Below the pieces are notes generated by a model. The model ran no database searches and had not been told where the DNA came from. It saw only the letters and a program-made list of their open reading frames with translations. Shown piece after piece: positions 2,877 through 24,656 of a stretch of 64,000 nucleotides of DNA. Positions within the stretch are counted from its first letter, which is position 1; each line of letters starts with the position of its first letter. The position numbers were made by a program, and so were the translations under genes. Location: NCBI GenBank assembly GCA_038216175.1, contig JBBQQG010000001.1, forward strand, positions 10,033 to 74,032, given 5' to 3'. Source of the DNA: Candidatus Saccharimonadales bacterium (GTDB lineage: Bacteria; Patescibacteriota; Saccharimonadia; Saccharimonadales; OMJO01).

Positions 2877-2961
2877 TGGTGCAGGGTGAGGGATTCGAAC
2901 CCCCGAAGGCTGAGCCAGCTGATTTACAGTCAGCCGTGTTTGACCGCTTCACTAACCCTGC
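2877..2961 (-). tRNA. tRNA-Tyr (GTA), CCA encoded
   Basis: The reverse complement folds by hand: acceptor GCAGGGT/ACCCTGC, anticodon stem GCTGA/TCAGC with loop CTGTAAA, a long variable arm, T-loop TTCGAAT and 3' ACCA. Confidence 0.9.
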
Positions 2962-2967
2962 ATAATT

Positions 2968-3043
2968 TGGAGCCGACGGAGGGAGTCGAACCCACGACCC
3001 GCTGTTTACAAAACAGCCGCTCTGGCCACTGAGCTACGTCGGC
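2968..3043 (-). tRNA. tRNA-Thr (TGT), CCA encoded
   Basis: Reverse complement GCCGACGTAGCTCAGTGGCCAGAGCGGCTGTTTTGTAAACAGC...TTCGACT...CGTCGGCTCCA. Acceptor 7 bp, D-stem GCTC/GAGC, anticodon loop TTTGTAA, one U-U mismatch in the T stem. Confidence 0.85.
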
Positions 3044-3735: not shown

Positions 3736-3765
3736 ACATTACTATTATAACACGACCTATTTTTC

Positions 3766-4650
3766 TTAAATATTTAACATTAGATCTGTTAAAACTAATT
3801 TTGTGCTTACCGAATTTAAAAGCCCTAACTGGGCTGTTTGTATTTCGCTAAGAATTTTATACCATCTTTTGATATCTTTTTTGTTATTTCTATCTGCTGA
3901 TTGTGAGAGTCCTGCATTTGCTATTTGTTTAAGTGAATAGACTAAATTTTCAATGTTTTGCTTATCTTTTAAAATTTCAGATAAACTTATTAATTTATCG
4001 TAGGTGGACATTGCTAATATTTTTCTAGCTTGTTCTATTTGAATCAATATCGGATGATTATTATCACCGTTTAAAATAGACGACATAACTCCAACTGCAC
4101 CGTTGGATATTGTATATGCCTTGGTAATTTGTGCATCGTCGTTATTAAAAAATACAATCGTTTGTTCTAAGCTGGGTATTAATATATCTACTTCTTGGAC
4201 GCGCGAATATATAGTCGGCAGTAACTTATCTGATTTTTCGGCAGTTAATATTAACATTGTGTCTGTTGGTGGCTCTTCCAGTGTTTTTAAAAGCGCATTC
4301 TGAGCGGCAATAGTTAGGTTGTGCGCATCTTCAATTATTATTAAACGTCTAATCGCGCCCTTACCGGTAGTTTTAAGCTGTAAAAATGTTGTAAGTCGTC
4401 TGATATCATCAATACCAATTGTTTTACTATCTTTTGGAGCAGCTATTGTCAGAAAATACGGATATGATTCTAGCTGTTTTTCGTTTTTACCTAATATTTC
4501 TCTTGTTATAAATTTAGCCAGCGTATATTTGCCTATTCCTGTTTTTCCGCTAAGTAAAACCGCGTGATTTTTTTTGTTAATAATTGAATCTAGTTCGAGT
4601 TTTGTTTTTGGATGAAACAATATATCAGTCATTTTCTGTAACAAGTTCAT
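3766..4650 (-). CDS. holB: DNA polymerase III subunit delta'
   Basis: P-loop LLSGKTGIGKYTLA, then AAQNALLKTLEEPP and SRVQ motifs. The start may be the ATG at 4632, which would reduce the overlap with the upstream gene. Confidence 0.75.
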   Translation of the reverse strand: MNLLQKMTDILFHPKTKLELDSIINKKNHAVLLSGKTGIGKYTLAKFITREILGKNEKQLESYPYFLTIAAPKDSKTIGIDDIRRLTTFLQLKTTGKGAIRRLIIIEDAHNLTIAAQNALLKTLEEPPTDTMLILTAEKSDKLLPTIYSRVQEVDILIPSLEQTIVFFNNDDAQITKAYTISNGAVGVMSSILNGDNNHPILIQIEQARKILAMSTYDKLISLSEILKDKQNIENLVYSLKQIANAGLSQSADRNNKKDIKRWYKILSEIQTAQLGLLNSVSTKLVLTDLMLNI

Positions 4651-17898: not shown

Positions 17899-18284
17899 TA
17901 CTTCGTCTCCTTTTTAACAGTCGATTTAGCGGCTGGTTTTTTAATCACACGCTGTTGACCATCAACTACTACCCGAATATGGGAGCTGCGTCTCTGAAAC
18001 GGCAGCGCTTGTCCGTGAGCTGCTGGGCGGTAACGCTTAATTCTAGGACCGGCCGTAACTCCAATTTCAATTATTGATAATCCCTCGGCCAAATAGTTAT
18101 GATTATGCTCGGCATTTGCCTTAGCGCTCTCGATAGCTTTTTTGACCGGCAAAGCTGATCTGCGAGGAGTATTTTCAAGTATCGTAATAGCATCGGCGAC
18201 AGTTCGACCGCGCACTAAAGCTGCAACAACTCCGACTTTTCTCGGACTCATTCGAACGCCTTTAGCGATAGATTGAACTGACAT
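17898..18284 (-). CDS. rplV: 50S ribosomal protein L22
   Basis: Typical uL22 sequence (RMSPRKVGVVAALVRG). Confidence 0.95.
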   Translation of the reverse strand: MSVQSIAKGVRMSPRKVGVVAALVRGRTVADAITILENTPRRSALPVKKAIESAKANAEHNHNYLAEGLSIIEIGVTAGPRIKRYRPAAHGQALPFQRRSSHIRVVVDGQQRVIKKPAAKSTVKKETK

Positions 18285-18559
18285 TACCTGTTCCCCTTAG
18301 CTAGTTTGCCGCCGTGGCTTCTAAATTTACGTGTCGGTGAAAATTCACCTAGTTTATGGCCGACCATGTTTTCGGTTACAAATACTGGTACGTGGACTTT
18401 ACCGTTATGTACAGCAATAGTTCGACCGACAAAATCTGGTGATATCGTACTGGCTCTAGCCCAAGTTTTAATAATCGTACGGTCTTCGTTGCCAAGAGCT
18501 GCAACTTTCTTAACTAGTTTTGGGTCGATAAATGGACCTTTTTTAAGTGATCTACTCAT
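18284..18559 (-). CDS. rpsS: 30S ribosomal protein S19
   Basis: [13 protein letters not shown]-terminus. Start trimmed to the ATG at 18559, with a GGAG 8 nt upstream. Confidence 0.95.
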
Positions 18560-18854
18560 GGTCTGCTCCAGTTCTTTCGTATTTAGCACCGAATAAGGCT
18601 ATCTGCCCTAGTCGTTCACCGTCATTTATCCCGCGGTCATATACATCGAGTATCAGTGCATGTACTTCTTCTTTGCTGAGTTTGCCAGTGTCTATTTGCT
18701 CGAAATCATCAAATAACAATCTCGTCTGATCAACTTTTAACTGAACAAACCCAAGATTTTGACGACCGTGGATGAAATTTCCGTAACTAAAACCATCCGG
18801 TGGTAATTCATGGATGACTATCATATTTTCGCCGGTTCTTAGTTTACTTGCCAT
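18552..18854 (-). CDS. hypothetical 100-aa protein inserted between rplB and rpsS
   Basis: ATG lies 2 nt after the rplB TAA and is preceded by AAGAGGAAA. Its stop overlaps the rpsS start by 8 nt. It fills the whole inter-gene gap. No recognisable domain. Confidence 0.6.
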
Positions 18855-18856
18855 AA

Positions 18857-19693
18857 TTATTTCCTCTTAGCCGAGTGACGGCTCCTTACAATAAACTTAG
18901 TACTGACCTTGCGGCGTCTGGTTTTAAAGCCCAAAGTCTTTTGACCCCAAGGCGTTCGAGGATCTTTGCCCATACCGTGTCGTCCGCCATCGCCGCCGCC
19001 ATGGGGGTGATCGGCTGCATTCATAACTACACCACGTACACCCGGTCGAATTCCGCGTTTACGATTTCGTCCGGCTTTGCCAATTTTAACGTTCTGGTGC
19101 TGTTCATTTCCAATTACTCCGATACTAGCTGTGCAGGCAACGTTAACCATCCGTACTTCGCCGCTGGGCAATCTAACTTGTGCGTACTGACCTTCTTTGG
19201 CCATCAACTGAGCACTAGTACCGGCTGATCGTACGATCTGAGCACCGCGACCAGGTATTAATTCAATTGCATGAAGTACACTTCCAACAGGAATATCTTT
19301 GATAGCTTTGCGGTTGCCGATTTCAATCGATGCTTCTTCGCCGGATTGTATTTTATGTCCGACTTTCATACCGCTGACTGCTAGAATATAGTGGAAAACT
19401 CCGGTAGAATCTTTAATTCGAGCAATTCGTGCGCTACGGTTAGGATCGTATTCAATTCCTTCAATTGTGGCAGTTGTACCGGCGCTGAGATTAAAGTTCA
19501 TAAGACGGTAGAATTGTCGAACACCGCCACCTTGATGCCTGGTTGTAATACGTCCTTGATTATTTCGTCCGCTGTGTTTTTTCTTTGCTACAAGTAGCGA
19601 CTTAAGTGGTTTTTTTAGCGTAATACTATCAAAATCCTGGGAAGTCATTCCCCGCTGTCCAGGAGTAGTCGGATTAAATGCTTTTATAGCCAT
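18857..19693 (-). CDS. rplB: 50S ribosomal protein L2
   Basis: Typical uL2 sequence including NAADHPHGGGDG. Confidence 0.95.
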   Translation of the reverse strand: MAIKAFNPTTPGQRGMTSQDFDSITLKKPLKSLLVAKKKHSGRNNQGRITTRHQGGGVRQFYRLMNFNLSAGTTATIEGIEYDPNRSARIARIKDSTGVFHYILAVSGMKVGHKIQSGEEASIEIGNRKAIKDIPVGSVLHAIELIPGRGAQIVRSAGTSAQLMAKEGQYAQVRLPSGEVRMVNVACTASIGVIGNEQHQNVKIGKAGRNRKRGIRPGVRGVVMNAADHPHGGGDGGRHGMGKDPRTPWGQKTLGFKTRRRKVSTKFIVRSRHSAKRK

Positions 19694-20697: not shown

Positions 20698-21309
20698 TTA
20701 GATAGCTCCCTTTACAATTACTATACCTTTTTTAGGACCTGGTACTGCTCCCGATACGCCTATGACTCCAAGGTCGGTGTCGACTAGTTCGATCTTCAAA
20801 TTTCGTACAGTTACTGTTTCGTCGCCCATATGGCCAGCCATTTTTTTACCTTTGAAAATATGCTGGGGATACATTGATCCGATAGATCCGGGACGTCGGT
20901 AGCTACGTCCACCATGAGTTTTTCTTCCTCGGTGAAAGTTATGGCGCTTAATTGTGCCGGCAAAACCTTTGCCTTTGGAAGTACCGGTAACTTGAACAAT
21001 ATCGCCGATAGCAAAAGTGTCGGCTGCGATACTGCTGCCGACACTCAAGTTTTCTTCTATTTCATTTTGTCTAATTTCACGGACAATTTTAGGTGTAACT
21101 TTTGACTTAGCAAAGTGGCCTTTTAGCGCTTTTCCAATGTTTTTAGCCGTTTCAGATCCAATCTGGACTGCGCTATATCCGTCGGTATCAATTGTCTTTA
21201 TCTGGGTAACTACGCTGGGAGAAGCTGAAAGCAGAGTTACGGCCTTAACTACACCATTTTCATTGATGGTGCTAGTCATGCCTAACTTCCTAGTAATTAA
21301 TGCTTTCAT
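20698..21309 (-). CDS. rplC: 50S ribosomal protein L3
   Basis: MKALITRKLGMTS start with a GGGGAG SD. FKGKKMAGHMG motif. The track ORF start at 21357 is judged too long. Confidence 0.95.
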   Translation of the reverse strand: MKALITRKLGMTSTINENGVVKAVTLLSASPSVVTQIKTIDTDGYSAVQIGSETAKNIGKALKGHFAKSKVTPKIVREIRQNEIEENLSVGSSIAADTFAIGDIVQVTGTSKGKGFAGTIKRHNFHRGRKTHGGRSYRRPGSIGSMYPQHIFKGKKMAGHMGDETVTVRNLKIELVDTDLGVIGVSGAVPGPKKGIVIVKGAI

Positions 21310-21356
21310 ATCTCCCCTGTAAAAACGTTTATTCCATTTGAATCTGGCAAAGTGCA

Positions 21357-21452
21357 AGACACAAAAATGCTTGGTGTCTGCTAGTCTCTACCCTTGTTAA
21401 TGCGGTAGACTGGGCAACTCACCAAGTAACGGAAAGTTTTATATACCGTTAA
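21357..21452 (-). promoter_or_regulatory. candidate structured 5' leader of the rplC operon (three hairpins)
   Basis: Hand-found stems: GACAC/GTGTC (21358-21378), TCTACC/GGTAGA (21387-21409) and TAACGG/CCGTTA (21427-21451), all upstream of rplC. Confidence 0.3.
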
Positions 21453-21560
21453 AGGGTAACACTGCAAGCCTACTCCTGTCAATATGTTGTATATACTACT
21501 ATATTAATTTATGTTTTAGTTTAATAATTGCGTATTATATTTGAATAGATTGGAGATAAT

Positions 21561-22103
21561 ATGGAAGTCGCGCTAGTGAACTCATTTCACGATATTGAAC
21601 CCGAGCATTTATATGATCGCGGTTTTAAGCTACTCGGTGTAGATATTGAAAATGTTATAACTGATTATCGGTCTAGCGAAGTTTTTCCAGGTGTAGCTGA
21701 GAAATTTGAGGAACTTGAAACAAGCGTAAAAGGGCTAAAAACTGTGTTAATAACTAATAGTACCGACATTCATATTATTAATGAAGTTCTCGATCAGATC
21801 GGAGACCATTTCATTTATTCACCGATCGGAGGTTACAATAAAAAGCCGTCAAGTGACATGTTTAGAGCAGCCATATGCTCTGAAGCAGTCTATCCTAATC
21901 AGGCAGCTCTCGTCGATGACCAGTTTAAATCTTATTTCGGCGCTAAAAACGCCGGTTATCGATCTTTTTTCTGGACTTTGCCAGATGGAGAAAATAGTCA
22001 TCCTGCCGTAAAAGCATTTCGACCGGTTGAGACGTCGCTGATCAGACCGTATTATTATCTTAAGAATATAGCTAATCGACGTAGCGATAGTATTTTATCG
22101 TAA
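21561..22103 (+). CDS. HAD-superfamily phosphatase, YqeG/subfamily IIIA-like (degenerate motif I)
   Basis: Motif I reads VDIENVIT (DxE, not DxD). ITNST, YNKKPS and LVDDQ motifs are present. GGAG SD 6 nt upstream. Confidence 0.5.
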   Translation: MEVALVNSFHDIEPEHLYDRGFKLLGVDIENVITDYRSSEVFPGVAEKFEELETSVKGLKTVLITNSTDIHIINEVLDQIGDHFIYSPIGGYNKKPSSDMFRAAICSEAVYPNQAALVDDQFKSYFGAKNAGYRSFFWTLPDGENSHPAVKAFRPVETSLIRPYYYLKNIANRRSDSILS

Positions 22104-22126
22104 TTAATAATTAAGCTGAGTTTGAT

Positions 22127-22402
22127 CTATTTAAAAACTGTTATATAGATACCGGCTTGTGTTGCGTAGCCGATTAGCATCGCTACCAGTAGAACCGCGT
22201 ATTCTATTTTTCTATCAATTTTAAAATGATCGTGCGATGCAATCAGAAGTCCGATTATAAGTCCGATCGGTAAAGGAATAACTCTTGTCAGCTGGGGATT
22301 TACAAACCTTATCCACTGGCCGCCAATTATTAAATAAATTACTAGTTTGAGAAAGTAGACGCTGTCTCGTTCGTTAGTTTCAACTATTTTCTTTTTAGCC
22401 AT
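22127..22402 (-). CDS. small integral membrane protein (hypothetical)
   Basis: 91 aa with three hydrophobic segments. Confidence 0.5.
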   Translation of the reverse strand: MAKKKIVETNERDSVYFLKLVIYLIIGGQWIRFVNPQLTRVIPLPIGLIIGLLIASHDHFKIDRKIEYAVLLVAMLIGYATQAGIYITVFK

Positions 22403-22442
22403 TTCGTTAATTTAAGCATAACCACGACAACCAGGCAACTAG

Positions 22443-22922
22443 TTAGCCTAGCACCCTATGTTTGATTAAAAACGGATGTACTTTTGGAAACTGAGAATGT
22501 AGCGGGCTGGGAAGACTATCGGCATCAAACCAACCTAACTCAGCAATTTTATCAGGTTCATTATTTTTTACCGTTTTAGGATCGACTAACACTGCGTGGG
22601 CAATAGCTATCCAATGGGTTTGAATGCCGTTTAAATTACGGTGGGCGTCGTAAGTAGTTAGATAATCTATTCGTTTTGGAATAACGCCGATTTCTTCAAA
22701 TAGTTCTCGAGTTATGGTTTCGATTAGTGTTTCACCGAACTCAACTGCGCCGCCGACTGCATCCCAGTTACCTTGTTCGTCTCTTGCGTTAGGTCCTCTT
22801 TTTTGAAGCAGTATCCGTCCTTTGCCGTCATGAACTATAGCGACAGCCGACACTCCGATATGGTCAATGCCCCGCCTAAGATCGGTTTTAGGATTAGCTA
22901 TGTTTATTTTTTTGATGGCCAT
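22443..22922 (-). CDS. NUDIX hydrolase
   Basis: Nudix box GGAVEFGETLIETITRELFEEIG. Confidence 0.8.
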   Translation of the reverse strand: MAIKKINIANPKTDLRRGIDHIGVSAVAIVHDGKGRILLQKRGPNARDEQGNWDAVGGAVEFGETLIETITRELFEEIGVIPKRIDYLTTYDAHRNLNGIQTHWIAIAHAVLVDPKTVKNNEPDKIAELGWFDADSLPSPLHSQFPKVHPFLIKHRVLG

Positions 22923-23577
22923 GATCTAATAATTGTACCGCTTTTAGTACTTGTGAAAAATTATTTACAAATATATCGACAGTATTTTCGCCGAAATCTT
23001 TTTTTGACAACAGTCCGCTTTCTAGCGATGCAATGAAATATAGTCCAGCTCCTTTAGCAGCCAGAGCGTCGTTTACGGTATCGCCGACGTATACACATTC
23101 TTCCGGTTTCCAGCCGTGGTTTGATTCGATTAACTGAAAAACTCTGGGATCGGGCTTATGAAACTTAAGATTGTCTTTATAATAAAACGCCTGTATACGG
23201 CTAGCTAGAATATGGTCTGGCTCCAGCATATGTTTTAGCTCATTATGCGAACGCGATGTCAGCACATACATCGATCGATCTTCTTGAATAAATTTATCCA
23301 GTATCTTTAAATTGTTTTCAGGTATCACGTCAAGTTTTTTTAAGTCTACGTAGCGCTCAATTAATTTGTAATATTCACGCCTAAATTCATCTAAATTTAT
23401 ACCCGGTGCCCAGAAATGGACTGCTTGTTCAGCCGGCTTACCCCAATGCTGATTATGTACTTTTCGGCTGACCGGAGGATAGCCAAGTATTTTAAGTACT
23501 TCGTTATCACCCTCAAATGCAACATCTTTTGTCATTACTAATGTATCGTCGAGATCAAGAATTACGGCTTTTATCAT
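22894..23577 (-). CDS. HAD-family hydrolase
   Basis: Motif I VILDLDDTLV, motif II VLTSRS, motif IV YVGDTVNDALAAKGAG. Confidence 0.8.
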   Translation of the reverse strand: MIKAVILDLDDTLVMTKDVAFEGDNEVLKILGYPPVSRKVHNQHWGKPAEQAVHFWAPGINLDEFRREYYKLIERYVDLKKLDVIPENNLKILDKFIQEDRSMYVLTSRSHNELKHMLEPDHILASRIQAFYYKDNLKFHKPDPRVFQLIESNHGWKPEECVYVGDTVNDALAAKGAGLYFIASLESGLLSKKDFGENTVDIFVNNFSQVLKAVQLLDHGHQKNKHS

Positions 23578-23954
23578 TGGTTAAACCGCAGCACCATGCC
23601 AGGATGGCCGACTATTTCAGCCGGCAAGTTATCGTGGATTATCAATGCATCCGGCGATTCAATTTTGGCGAAGTTATTTTCAGCTACAAATATATTTAGT
23701 CCAGTTTCATCGAAGAATTTTATTCTAGAACAAAGCTGGCCAGCTGTTTTAGCTATTTTTAAGTGACGGTTATAATCTTCGACAATGTAGCGGCCAAGGC
23801 TTCTGTCATCTATTTCGTTCCATAATGCCCGCTTAAAACTGATTCGGCTTTCAATTTTTATACCTGCGAAAATATTGCCAACTACTGTATGTCTTAGCAG
23901 GTTGCCAAATGAGCTGTCTTCTTCGACCGGGTTTATTTTATCTACTGAAAACAT
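23574..23954 (-). CDS. hypothetical protein
   Basis: 126-aa ORF with a 4-nt overlap onto the downstream HAD gene. No recognisable motif. Confidence 0.45.
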   Translation of the reverse strand: MFSVDKINPVEEDSSFGNLLRHTVVGNIFAGIKIESRISFKRALWNEIDDRSLGRYIVEDYNRHLKIAKTAGQLCSRIKFFDETGLNIFVAENNFAKIESPDALIIHDNLPAEIVGHPGMVLRFNQ

Positions 23955-24025
23955 TACGACTAATCTATAATCTTTCTTATGTATTTAATTCGTTTTAAAG
24001 TAATTATTATGCCTGCAAATTTTTT

Positions 24026-24202
24026 ATGACGAGCAGCTTTGATTCTCAAAAGTGTAAATCTAAAACTCGCTTTAACAGCGATAGTTCTGCCCAGTCTGCT
24101 CTTAAAAAGTTAAATCCGAAAAAATTATCAGGTAGTCCGATAAGAGTTTATAAATGCCCTGCTTGTAGCGGCTGGCATCTGACAAGGTCAAAACTTAGGT
24201 AA
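24026..24202 (+). CDS. small zinc-ribbon-like protein (hypothetical, 58 aa)
   Basis: Below the ORF-track cutoff. Hand translation gives [58 protein letters not shown], with a C-x39-CPAC..WHLT motif. Confidence 0.4.
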
Positions 24203-24209
24203 TACAGCT

Positions 24210-24656
24210 CTACATTTTAATTTCGGCGTCGCAACCGGCTGGCAAACTGAGGTTCATCAAGCTGTCGATTGTCTTGGGGGTCGGGTCGCTTATATCGATA
24301 AGGCGTTTATGTACCCGCATTTCGAACTGTTCCCGGCTTTTCTTATAGACATGAGGGCTTTTAACGACTGTATATACCGTTTTACGGGTTGGTAGCGGAA
24401 TCGGTCCCGATATTACTGCACCGGTTCGTAGCGCCGTATCGACAATCTGTTTTGCAGCCTGATCGATTACTTTATGATCATATGCTTTAAGCCTGATTCT
24501 AATTCTTTGTTTTACTGGAGCATCAGGTTTTTTTGCTGCTTCTTTTTTAACTGTCACTGGCTTTTTTGCTTCAGCCGGTACGCTTTTCTCTGCTACAGCG
24601 CTAGGTTTGGTTTCTGGTTTTGCCGCTTTTTTAGGTTCGGTTTTGGCTTCAGCCAT
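24210..24656 (-). CDS. rpsJ: 30S ribosomal protein S10 with a roughly 47-aa Lys/Ala/Pro/Glu-rich N-terminal extension
   Basis: Core [26 protein letters not shown]...[38 protein letters not shown] upstream. Confidence 0.9.

Follow-up and report, generated by a model that had tools for sequence, protein, structure and literature searches.

Ribosomal-protein operons are seen as the most invariant part of the genome and form the backbone of phylogenomic marker sets. In S10- and spc-type operons such as those of E. coli, the cistrons are coupled, with stop and start codons that abut or overlap and a Shine-Dalgarno (SD) sequence placed in the end of the preceding gene. These clusters also house other genes: secY, adk, map and infA are non-ribosomal genes of bacterial spc operons, and open reading frames (ORFs) of archaeal S10/spc-like operons, once of unknown role, were later tied to RNA processing or translation. 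Variable slots are known, for example, from surface-antigen and bacteriocin-immunity regions, where divergent alleles or cassettes are exchanged through recombination in the conserved genes on either side, and the small acidic proteins of immunity and anti-restriction include the colicin and contact-dependent inhibition (CDI) immunity proteins, Ocr and ArdA-like DNA mimics. We analysed a stretch of 64,000 nucleotides from a Candidatus Saccharimonadales bacterium (GCA_038216175.1, contig JBBQQG010000001.1, positions 10,033 to 74,032; hereafter the window, whose own numbering is used), in which a 100-codon ORF is inserted between rplB and rpsS of the S10-type operon. We put a probability of about 0.6 on the reading that this ORF is a real, translated and selected gene for an accessory protein that doubles as a coupling relay. 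Sequence comparison places it in a positional set of small, acidic and probably cytoplasmic proteins found in roughly a third of the Saccharibacteria loci that we compared.

The inserted ORF is built like a coupled ribosomal cistron, but it does not encode a ribosomal protein. Its product lacks any known domain and is acidic, not basic, and the inserted gene is present in only about one third of related genomes. As with the genes housed in ribosomal clusters, a non-ribosomal protein would be co-expressed from inside the operon; the housed genes, however, are conserved, essential and recognisable across phyla, whereas the junction ORF is hypervariable, apparently dispensable and, as sampled, restricted to Saccharibacteria, and many unrelated-looking versions of it occupy one site. 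With the variable slots, the junction shares a fixed position, conserved flanks, divergent occupants together with an empty state, and an occupant type that is decoupled from the phylogeny of the flanks. It differs from them in lying inside a core ribosomal operon, in holding a single gene of ~100 codons and in having no recognisable conflict component, and exchange at this site is suggested from the comparison of sequences. Immunity and anti-restriction proteins are similarly small (~85-130 aa), acidic and highly diverse, but the junction ORF has no sequence or fold match among them and no cognate toxin gene. The combination of a core-operon junction, many unlike acidic occupants, an empty state and ORFs kept open across short inserts appears to be new, and a full-text literature search returned no description of an ORF at the rplB-rpsS junction in Saccharibacteria or Patescibacteria. 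It appears to be a new variant of the coupled cistron, the housed gene or the variable slot rather than a new kind of system.

The operon of the window runs on the minus strand in the order rplC, rplD, rplW, rplB, ORF, rpsS, rplV, rpsC and rplP, and continues with rpmC, rpsQ, rplN, rplX, rplE and rpsN; all the other junctions of this run are 0-4 nt long or overlapping. Pfam Ribosomal_L2_N and Ribosomal_L2_C match rplB on an identical Logan contig. The 3' end of rplB reads GCT AAG AGG AAA TAA, followed by TT and by the first codons of the ORF, ATG GCA AGT, with the ATG at 18854-18852 of the minus strand and 8 nt from the end of its SD. At the other side the ORF ends in ACT GGA GCA GAC CAT GAG TAG. 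The initial annotation, made from the letters of the DNA, had described an ORF of 100 aa that fills the junction, with its ATG 2 nt past the rplB TAA and behind an SD, and with a CAT GAG TAG end that holds the rpsS ATG and gives rpsS a GGAG SD. All of this was confirmed on the sequence, and the coordinates and the quoted translation were exact, but that the operon and the ORF lie on the minus strand had not been stated. The start of rpsS is the ATG at 18559 and not the listed GTG at 18589; all relatives begin with MSRSLKKG. An alternative start of the ORF at Met11, which would match the N-terminus of the relatives, was rejected, as this codon has no SD and the first ATG has a canonical SD and spacing.

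With an ATG near the upstream stop, a stop overlapping the downstream start and SDs inside the preceding genes, the ORF has the features of a coupled cistron on both sides. Such a layout predicts that it would be co-transcribed with the ribosomal operon, and that ribosomes ending rplB would restart 2 nt further on by way of the SD in the last rplB codons, translate the ORF and terminate at the TAG overlapping the rpsS AUG, just past the GGAG encoded by the ORF. Read from the sequence, the ORF would be an obligatory relay that hands ribosomes to rpsS, and its product would be made in amounts like those of ribosomal proteins.

The ORF is a genuine gene with a native-looking codon usage. The other five frames of the segment contain 4-11 stops each. 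Under a codon-usage model trained on 31 long ORFs of the window, the ORF scored 0.186 bits/codon in frame and -0.3 to -0.94 in the other frames, compared with a mean of 0.262 bits/codon (standard deviation 0.085) for true 100-codon windows of the contig and a mean of -0.81 (maximum -0.14) for off-frame ones. Its GC content (0.40) is the same as that of the neighbourhood and amounts to 0.58/0.31/0.35 by codon position, highest at position 1 and similar at positions 2 and 3. The encoded protein has a pI of 5.11 and a net charge of -6. No promoter-like or terminator-like site was found on the minus strand in or beside the ORF, and no Rfam family matched in the ORF region. The mRNA of the ORF folds no better than shuffles (z -0.22). 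Tandem repeats are absent in and near the ORF, unlike the short intercistronic repeat elements of its relatives. An origin by duplication or overprinting of neighbours was discarded, with no paralog or similar segment elsewhere in the window.

Related loci were drawn from the best 80 of 396 genome matches and the best 80 of 438 metagenome matches. The rplB sequence places the window in Saccharibacteria (TM7), with a best match of 83% identity to metagenome-assembled genomes of 'Candidatus Saccharimonas'; in the metagenome collection the best rplB identity was 82%, with none closer. Among the 156 loci with both flanks, the rplB-rpsS gap is bimodal: it measures 1-18 nt in 106 of them and 107-585 nt in the other 50. 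The earlier statement that this junction is normally a short spacer holds for the former and fails for the latter. At rplB-rpsS, 42 of 154 loci have a gap longer than 200 nt, compared with three loci at most at any of nine other S10-operon junctions, and because the long gaps concentrate there, the rplB-rpsS junction is a specific site for ORFs of ~100 codons. The long gaps hold same-strand ORFs, 37 distinct ones of 75-132 aa, nearly all of which begin 1-4 nt past the stop of rplB and have a 4-nt (ATGA) or 8-nt overlap with the start of rpsS. Their 3' ends share the layout (A/G)GGAG N6-9 ATG, and rplB ends in AAGAGGA(A/G)ATAA in all nine pairs of relatives inspected, occupied or empty junction alike. 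The presence of an ORF in the gap of relatives, which the initial annotation had proposed as a check, was found in about one third of the loci, and the ORF of the window, presented there as a single oddity, is one instance of a Saccharibacteria-wide variable slot. For annotation, this means that the rplB-rpsS spacing is variable in Saccharibacteria and that the inserted ORFs are real genes and not miscalls. In the longest gap, of 585 nt (L057:1263-1847; also L135), the ORF covers only the last 396 nt; ~190 nt after rplB are without an ORF, and the N-terminus as called, which is rich in Cys (CSSCGNTRIQAGSCNSCVC), is possibly not translated.

All 37 gap ORFs are acidic, with net charges of -2 to -16 and a median pI of 4.75, and their GC content is distributed as in genes, with ~0.6 at codon position 1 declining to ~0.35 at position 3. 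Read in the other frames, these stretches would give peptides with a mean net charge of +8.8 and contain 5.8 stops on average. The window ORF fits this set in strand, in filling the gap, in length, in acidity and in having more GC at position 1 than at position 3. At the sequence level, blastp among the gap ORFs left almost all of them as singletons, and most pairs are unrecognisable, although Smith-Waterman scores of at least 45 were reached by 11 pairs against 1.2 in composition-preserving shuffles. Pfam and NCBIfam revealed no convincing family among 36 gap ORFs (best E 0.027). Two groups could be distinguished by their motifs. Class A ORFs (L008, L031, L036, L039, L045, L097, L139 and L150) share an N-terminal M-(I/L)-x-F-x-E-x-P-P motif, whose Pro-Pro codons vary at third positions, and therefore the constraint is on the protein and not on the RNA. 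When an alignment of 10 class A sequences was searched against 5.8 billion proteins, the sole matches were four sequences already in the query. Class B ORFs carry a C-terminal EPP(M/L)(S/T)..E..F..G motif, and a profile of it reaches few other ORFs, weakly, and does not unify the set. The window ORF also shows the class A motif, starting at Met11. It did not score above shuffles with a profile built from five class A ORFs, and we do not claim class A membership for it, the only ground being its N-terminal MIxIxELPP motif.

The window ORF does have detectable relatives at the same junction. It was aligned by blastp with the junction ORF of L072 (37% identity over 60 aa, E 1e-4), with a Smith-Waterman score of 55 against a shuffle maximum of 39. 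A profile search with these two sequences found two further proteins, P0009 and P0010, and both sit between rplB and rpsS with the same packing, in L162 (Logan SRR22387773) and L163 (JGI 3300020195). A profile of the L072, L162 and L163 proteins gave the window ORF 7.6 bits, a score reached by 1 of 2000 shuffles. The window protein shares with them an MI(V/T)IHE start, placed after a 10-residue extension, a TR(L/V)xFDD strand and an LG(Q/R)..(F)G motif, and carries a 26-residue insert relative to them. From these comparisons, it is a probable distant and rearranged member of this subfamily. The ratio of nonsynonymous to synonymous substitutions (dN/dS) among the L072, L162 and L163 ORFs is 0.20-0.23 (Nei-Gojobori, dS 0.7-1.4), and that of the L162-L163 pair is 0.083 for rpsS and 0.025 for rplB. 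The purifying selection that the initial annotation had suggested looking for is thus found in the only measurable subfamily, where dN/dS is not 1, and these values indicate for the subfamily protein a rate of evolution ~3-5 times that of its ribosomal neighbours. Near-identical pairs offer too few differences for population-level tests of selection: L061 and L145 differ by 9 single-nucleotide polymorphisms (SNPs) in 5.9 kb, 2 of them in the ORF and both nonsynonymous, and L073 and L156 by 29 SNPs, 0 of them in the ORF.

Searches of known families with the window protein agree with the earlier remark that it has no recognisable motif. Pfam gave no match, NCBIfam a single one that is noise (YadW, E 4.8), PHROGs nothing usable (E 0.2-0.28 only), PADLOC 0 matches and a sequence search of the PDB nothing usable; the curated Pfam and NCBIfam models of ribosomal proteins and ribosome-associated factors were also unmatched. 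A word-indexed search of 5.8 billion proteins returned only the query itself. Of the two kinds of searches that had been proposed, profiles did recover the distant junction relatives, whereas AlphaFold and Foldseek yielded no usable fold.

The case for a functional protein comes from the gene character of the ORF, the conserved motifs and the purifying selection, and not from the packing. The protein itself probably matters, because it is predicted to be soluble, is acidic and belongs to a subfamily under purifying selection; it would be fast-evolving, often lost and apparently replaced by other types. Several observations weigh against this reading. About two thirds of the relatives have no ORF at rplB-rpsS, which speaks against an important ribosomal role. 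In four pairs of relatives (L027/L042, L045/L020, L059/L048 and L117/L094), with rplB 96-99% identical as protein and about 85-90% as DNA, one member has an ORF of ~100 codons and the other a spacer of 1-4 nt. As the ORFs of short inserts (described below) show, coupling by itself can suffice to keep a frame open. The link of the window ORF to its subfamily is weak, and the window ORF does not have the conserved C-terminal module of ~27 aa; the dN/dS values come from the relatives, the window ORF having no close one. Finally, AlphaFold2 models of the window ORF reached a mean confidence (pLDDT) of 52.8 when built from the sequence alone and of 43.1 when built with an alignment of 8 sequences, and the best Foldseek match of the former model in the PDB had an E of 0.22, at noise level like a CdiI chain at E 0.47.

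Since it is often absent, we infer that the gene is dispensable, and it would also be highly variable, with types turning over; such behaviour is not expected of a core ribosome factor. A role in trans can be suggested tentatively: the acidic protein could serve, without being essential, as a partner or buffer of the basic ribosomal proteins encoded next to it or in ribosome assembly, and we regard this role as possible but doubtful. The product may also be a ribosome-associated factor, as the initial annotation had put forward. Saccharibacteria have lost several standard 30S biogenesis factors, and Saccharimonadia are mostly without era and rbfA (PMC12641178). The junction ORFs flag proteins that are probably highly expressed in a major uncultured and host-dependent lineage.

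A first alternative is that the inserted DNA is kept open only for the coupling of rpsS, with a functionless peptide constrained merely to be harmless; its acidity would be part of this, an acidic peptide being unlikely to bind rRNA. This possibility arises from the short inserts of 60-199 nt that are found at many S10-operon junctions in L003, L028, L138, L107, L036, L163 and L025. At junctions other than rplB-rpsS, an ORF bridges the whole insert, from the stop of one gene to the start of the next, in 49 of 64 cases, where 9.3 would be expected from shuffling the interior and reverse complements yield 2. Many of them belong to families of repeat elements of 100-157 nt, made of tandem heptamers, often with inverted (palindromic) arms, and present in several copies per operon, with a conserved 3' module GCGACCnAAGGGAGC ahead of the next ATG; their translations do not look like proteins. 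The copies of L138 fold as hairpins (z -3.1, -2.2), and those of L163 and L028 do not. Inserts in these operons thus seem to be kept translatable, presumably since downstream genes need ribosomes from upstream. Because almost any insert is spanned by an ORF, tight packing is something that the site demands and does not speak for a ribosomal function. What had been concluded from the packing therefore stands in part: the gene is real, its packing is of the coupling type on both sides and fits co-transcription, but it is no sign of a function in the ribosome.

The extreme diversity of the long ORFs, their presence and absence among close species and the lack of a fold in AlphaFold are also what a mere bridge would show. 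On the other side, the subfamily to which the window ORF is related has a dN/dS of 0.20-0.23, and motifs are conserved in their amino acids while third codon positions vary. Moreover, the 37 long ORFs are without exception acidic and gene-like in GC, whereas the short bridging ORFs are basic and without this pattern, as seen at rplB-rpsS itself in the shortest inserts (107-151 nt). The long ORFs are also concentrated at one junction, which is unexpected for a generic process. We consider it unlikely, on balance, that the window ORF is a bridge and nothing else. The long ORFs and the short-insert ORFs together offer a natural experiment on how translational coupling limits insertions into operons, and the forced translation of inserts may feed the birth of new genes.

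Another explanation takes the junction as a slot of ancient divergent alleles, together with an empty one, that are exchanged between Saccharibacteria by homologous recombination through the flanks. The protein would act in an arms race, for example in immunity or as a decoy against toxins, phage or factors of the host, some of which might be directed at the ribosome. The turnover of the junction provides the main arguments in its favour. The similarity of the ORFs is uncorrelated with rplB identity (Spearman 0.05): among carriers with 88-92% identical rplB, recognisably related ORFs were found in 1 of 47 pairs, and several of the ORF pairs that resemble each other most come from genomes with rplB just 75-82% identical. 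At a 5-fold rate, orthologous ORFs at 90% rplB identity would still be alignable, and therefore either the types were replaced or the rates vary enormously. Occupied and empty junctions alternate among close species and have the same ends (AAGAGGAAATAA, 1-4 nt, ATG), so that a deletion between both SD-ATG modules would cleanly remove the ORF. Between L072 and L162, the proportion of synonymous differences (pS) is 0.63 in the ORF and 0.79 and 0.88 in the flanks, which fits a later exchange of the ORF, as if it had moved after the flanks diverged, in a comparison of 100 codons. The small size and the acidity are likewise those of many immunity and anti-restriction proteins. Against it, the neighbours are rplB and rpsS, with no partner toxin or defence gene, and no match was obtained in PADLOC, Pfam or PHROGs for the window ORF or in Pfam and NCBIfam for the 36 ORFs. 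In the database of 5.8 billion proteins, the families were never found in another genomic context, and the use of rplB alone is a noisy stand-in for phylogeny. We hold a conflict gene of this kind to be improbable. Should cassette exchange be true, recombination would act within marker genes whose vertical inheritance is taken for granted.

A more general proposal would join these elements in a dedicated hypervariable expression slot within the cell's most conserved operon, with many ancient acidic alleles, unrecognisable to one another, shuffled between lineages by recombination and diversified by conflict and with an empty allele, or alternatively in a nursery where ORFs maintained by coupling mature into proteins. 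It is offered as a speculation that we find quite unlikely.

A degenerate EF-hand calcium-binding protein was suggested by an exhaustive HMMER search of 1.84 billion representatives, which gave two marginal matches (E 1.9e-4 and 3.7e-4). Both were judged spurious, being long repeat proteins, one with EF-hands and one of low complexity. The former is a protein of 1259 aa whose E of 1.9e-4 is summed over 3 stretches; a calcium-binding protein of the PDB also appears at E 0.8, and residues 48-64 of the window ORF fit the loop spacing, with G at position 6, L at 8 and E at 12. No Pfam EF-hand model (PF13499 and related) matches up to E 10, the loop positions 1 and 3 are E and I and not D/N/S, there is no second EF-hand for pairing, and L072, L162 and L163, the closest relatives, do not conserve this segment. 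This lead was rejected as very improbable and close to refuted. The weakest explanation, a chance ORF or an assembly artefact, could appeal to a protein that is an orphan in very large databases, but is refuted for practical purposes by the coding statistics, by a separately assembled Logan contig (SRR19962015) in which 3.5 kb including the ORF are 100% identical, and by the same architecture in dozens of other genomes.

Table 1. Features of the S10-type operon of the window, and inserts at other junctions of related loci (locus:positions).
Feature	Position	Strand	Remarks
Inserted ORF	18552-18854	minus	100 aa, between rplB and rpsS
rplB (uL2), upstream flank	18857-19693	minus	69-83% identity with Saccharibacteria rplB
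rpsS (uS19), downstream flank	18284-18559	minus	Pfam Ribosomal_S19 (on identical Logan contig)
SD AAGAGGAAA of the ORF	18860-18868	minus	made of the last codons of rplB
rplB stop TAA (18859-18857) and 2-nt TT spacer	18855-18859	minus	read from the sequence
GGAG SD of rpsS	18566-18569	minus	within the last codons of the ORF, 6 nt 5' of the rpsS ATG
8-nt overlap ATGAGTAG	18552-18559	minus	rpsS ATG 18559-18557 and ORF stop TAG 18554-18552
rplC as called	20698-21357	minus	first gene of the rplC-rpsN run
Opposite-strand ORF	21561-22103	plus	between rpsJ and rplC
Small, probably membrane protein gene	22127-22402	minus	between rpsJ and rplC
NUDIX-like gene	22443-22922	minus	between rpsJ and rplC
HAD-like gene	22894-23577	minus	between rpsJ and rplC
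Repeat elements, examples	L138:3351-3443, 3745-3837, 4217-4309		
Repeat elements, examples	L163:1100-1240, 1611-1787, 2423-2590		
Extra ORFs	L008:4764-5093, L039:4887-5147, L072:4823-5068		rplV-rpsC
Extra ORFs	L119:2256-2501, L139:1768-1950		rplW-rplB
Extra ORF	L078:5907-6257		rpmC-rpsQ

We also detected extra gap-filling ORFs of 60-116 aa at other S10-operon junctions in a few genomes, most of them acidic (Table 1). No similarity to the rplB-rpsS ORFs was detectable. L008, L039, L072 and L139 have such an ORF in addition to a class A or window-like ORF at rplB-rpsS. The automatic ORF calls of the window are too long for two genes, rpsS (called 18284-18589, minus strand) and rplC; comparison with relatives indicates that the start of rplC is probably the ATG at 21309 (MKALITRK) and not the called TTG at 21357. 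The sole Rfam matches in the 64-kb window are two adjoining tRNA genes (2880-3043, minus strand).

At the upstream end of the cluster, rpsJ (S10; 24213-24512, minus strand) lies ~2.9 kb upstream of rplC, with an intervening region (21358-24212) that contains the four genes listed in Table 1. The two genes were less than 150 nt apart in 0 of 106 related loci, and in the 43 loci with rpsJ inside the available flank the gap between them was 189-1225 nt. A conserved hydrophobic protein of ~91-95 aa is encoded there, in the window as in L002 (783-1070), with the motif YLLKLVI.LIIG.QW.RFVNP...HDHF.IDRKIEYAVLLVAML.G. From its sequence, it is probably a membrane protein, and its gene may be another lineage-specific gene of the ribosomal cluster.

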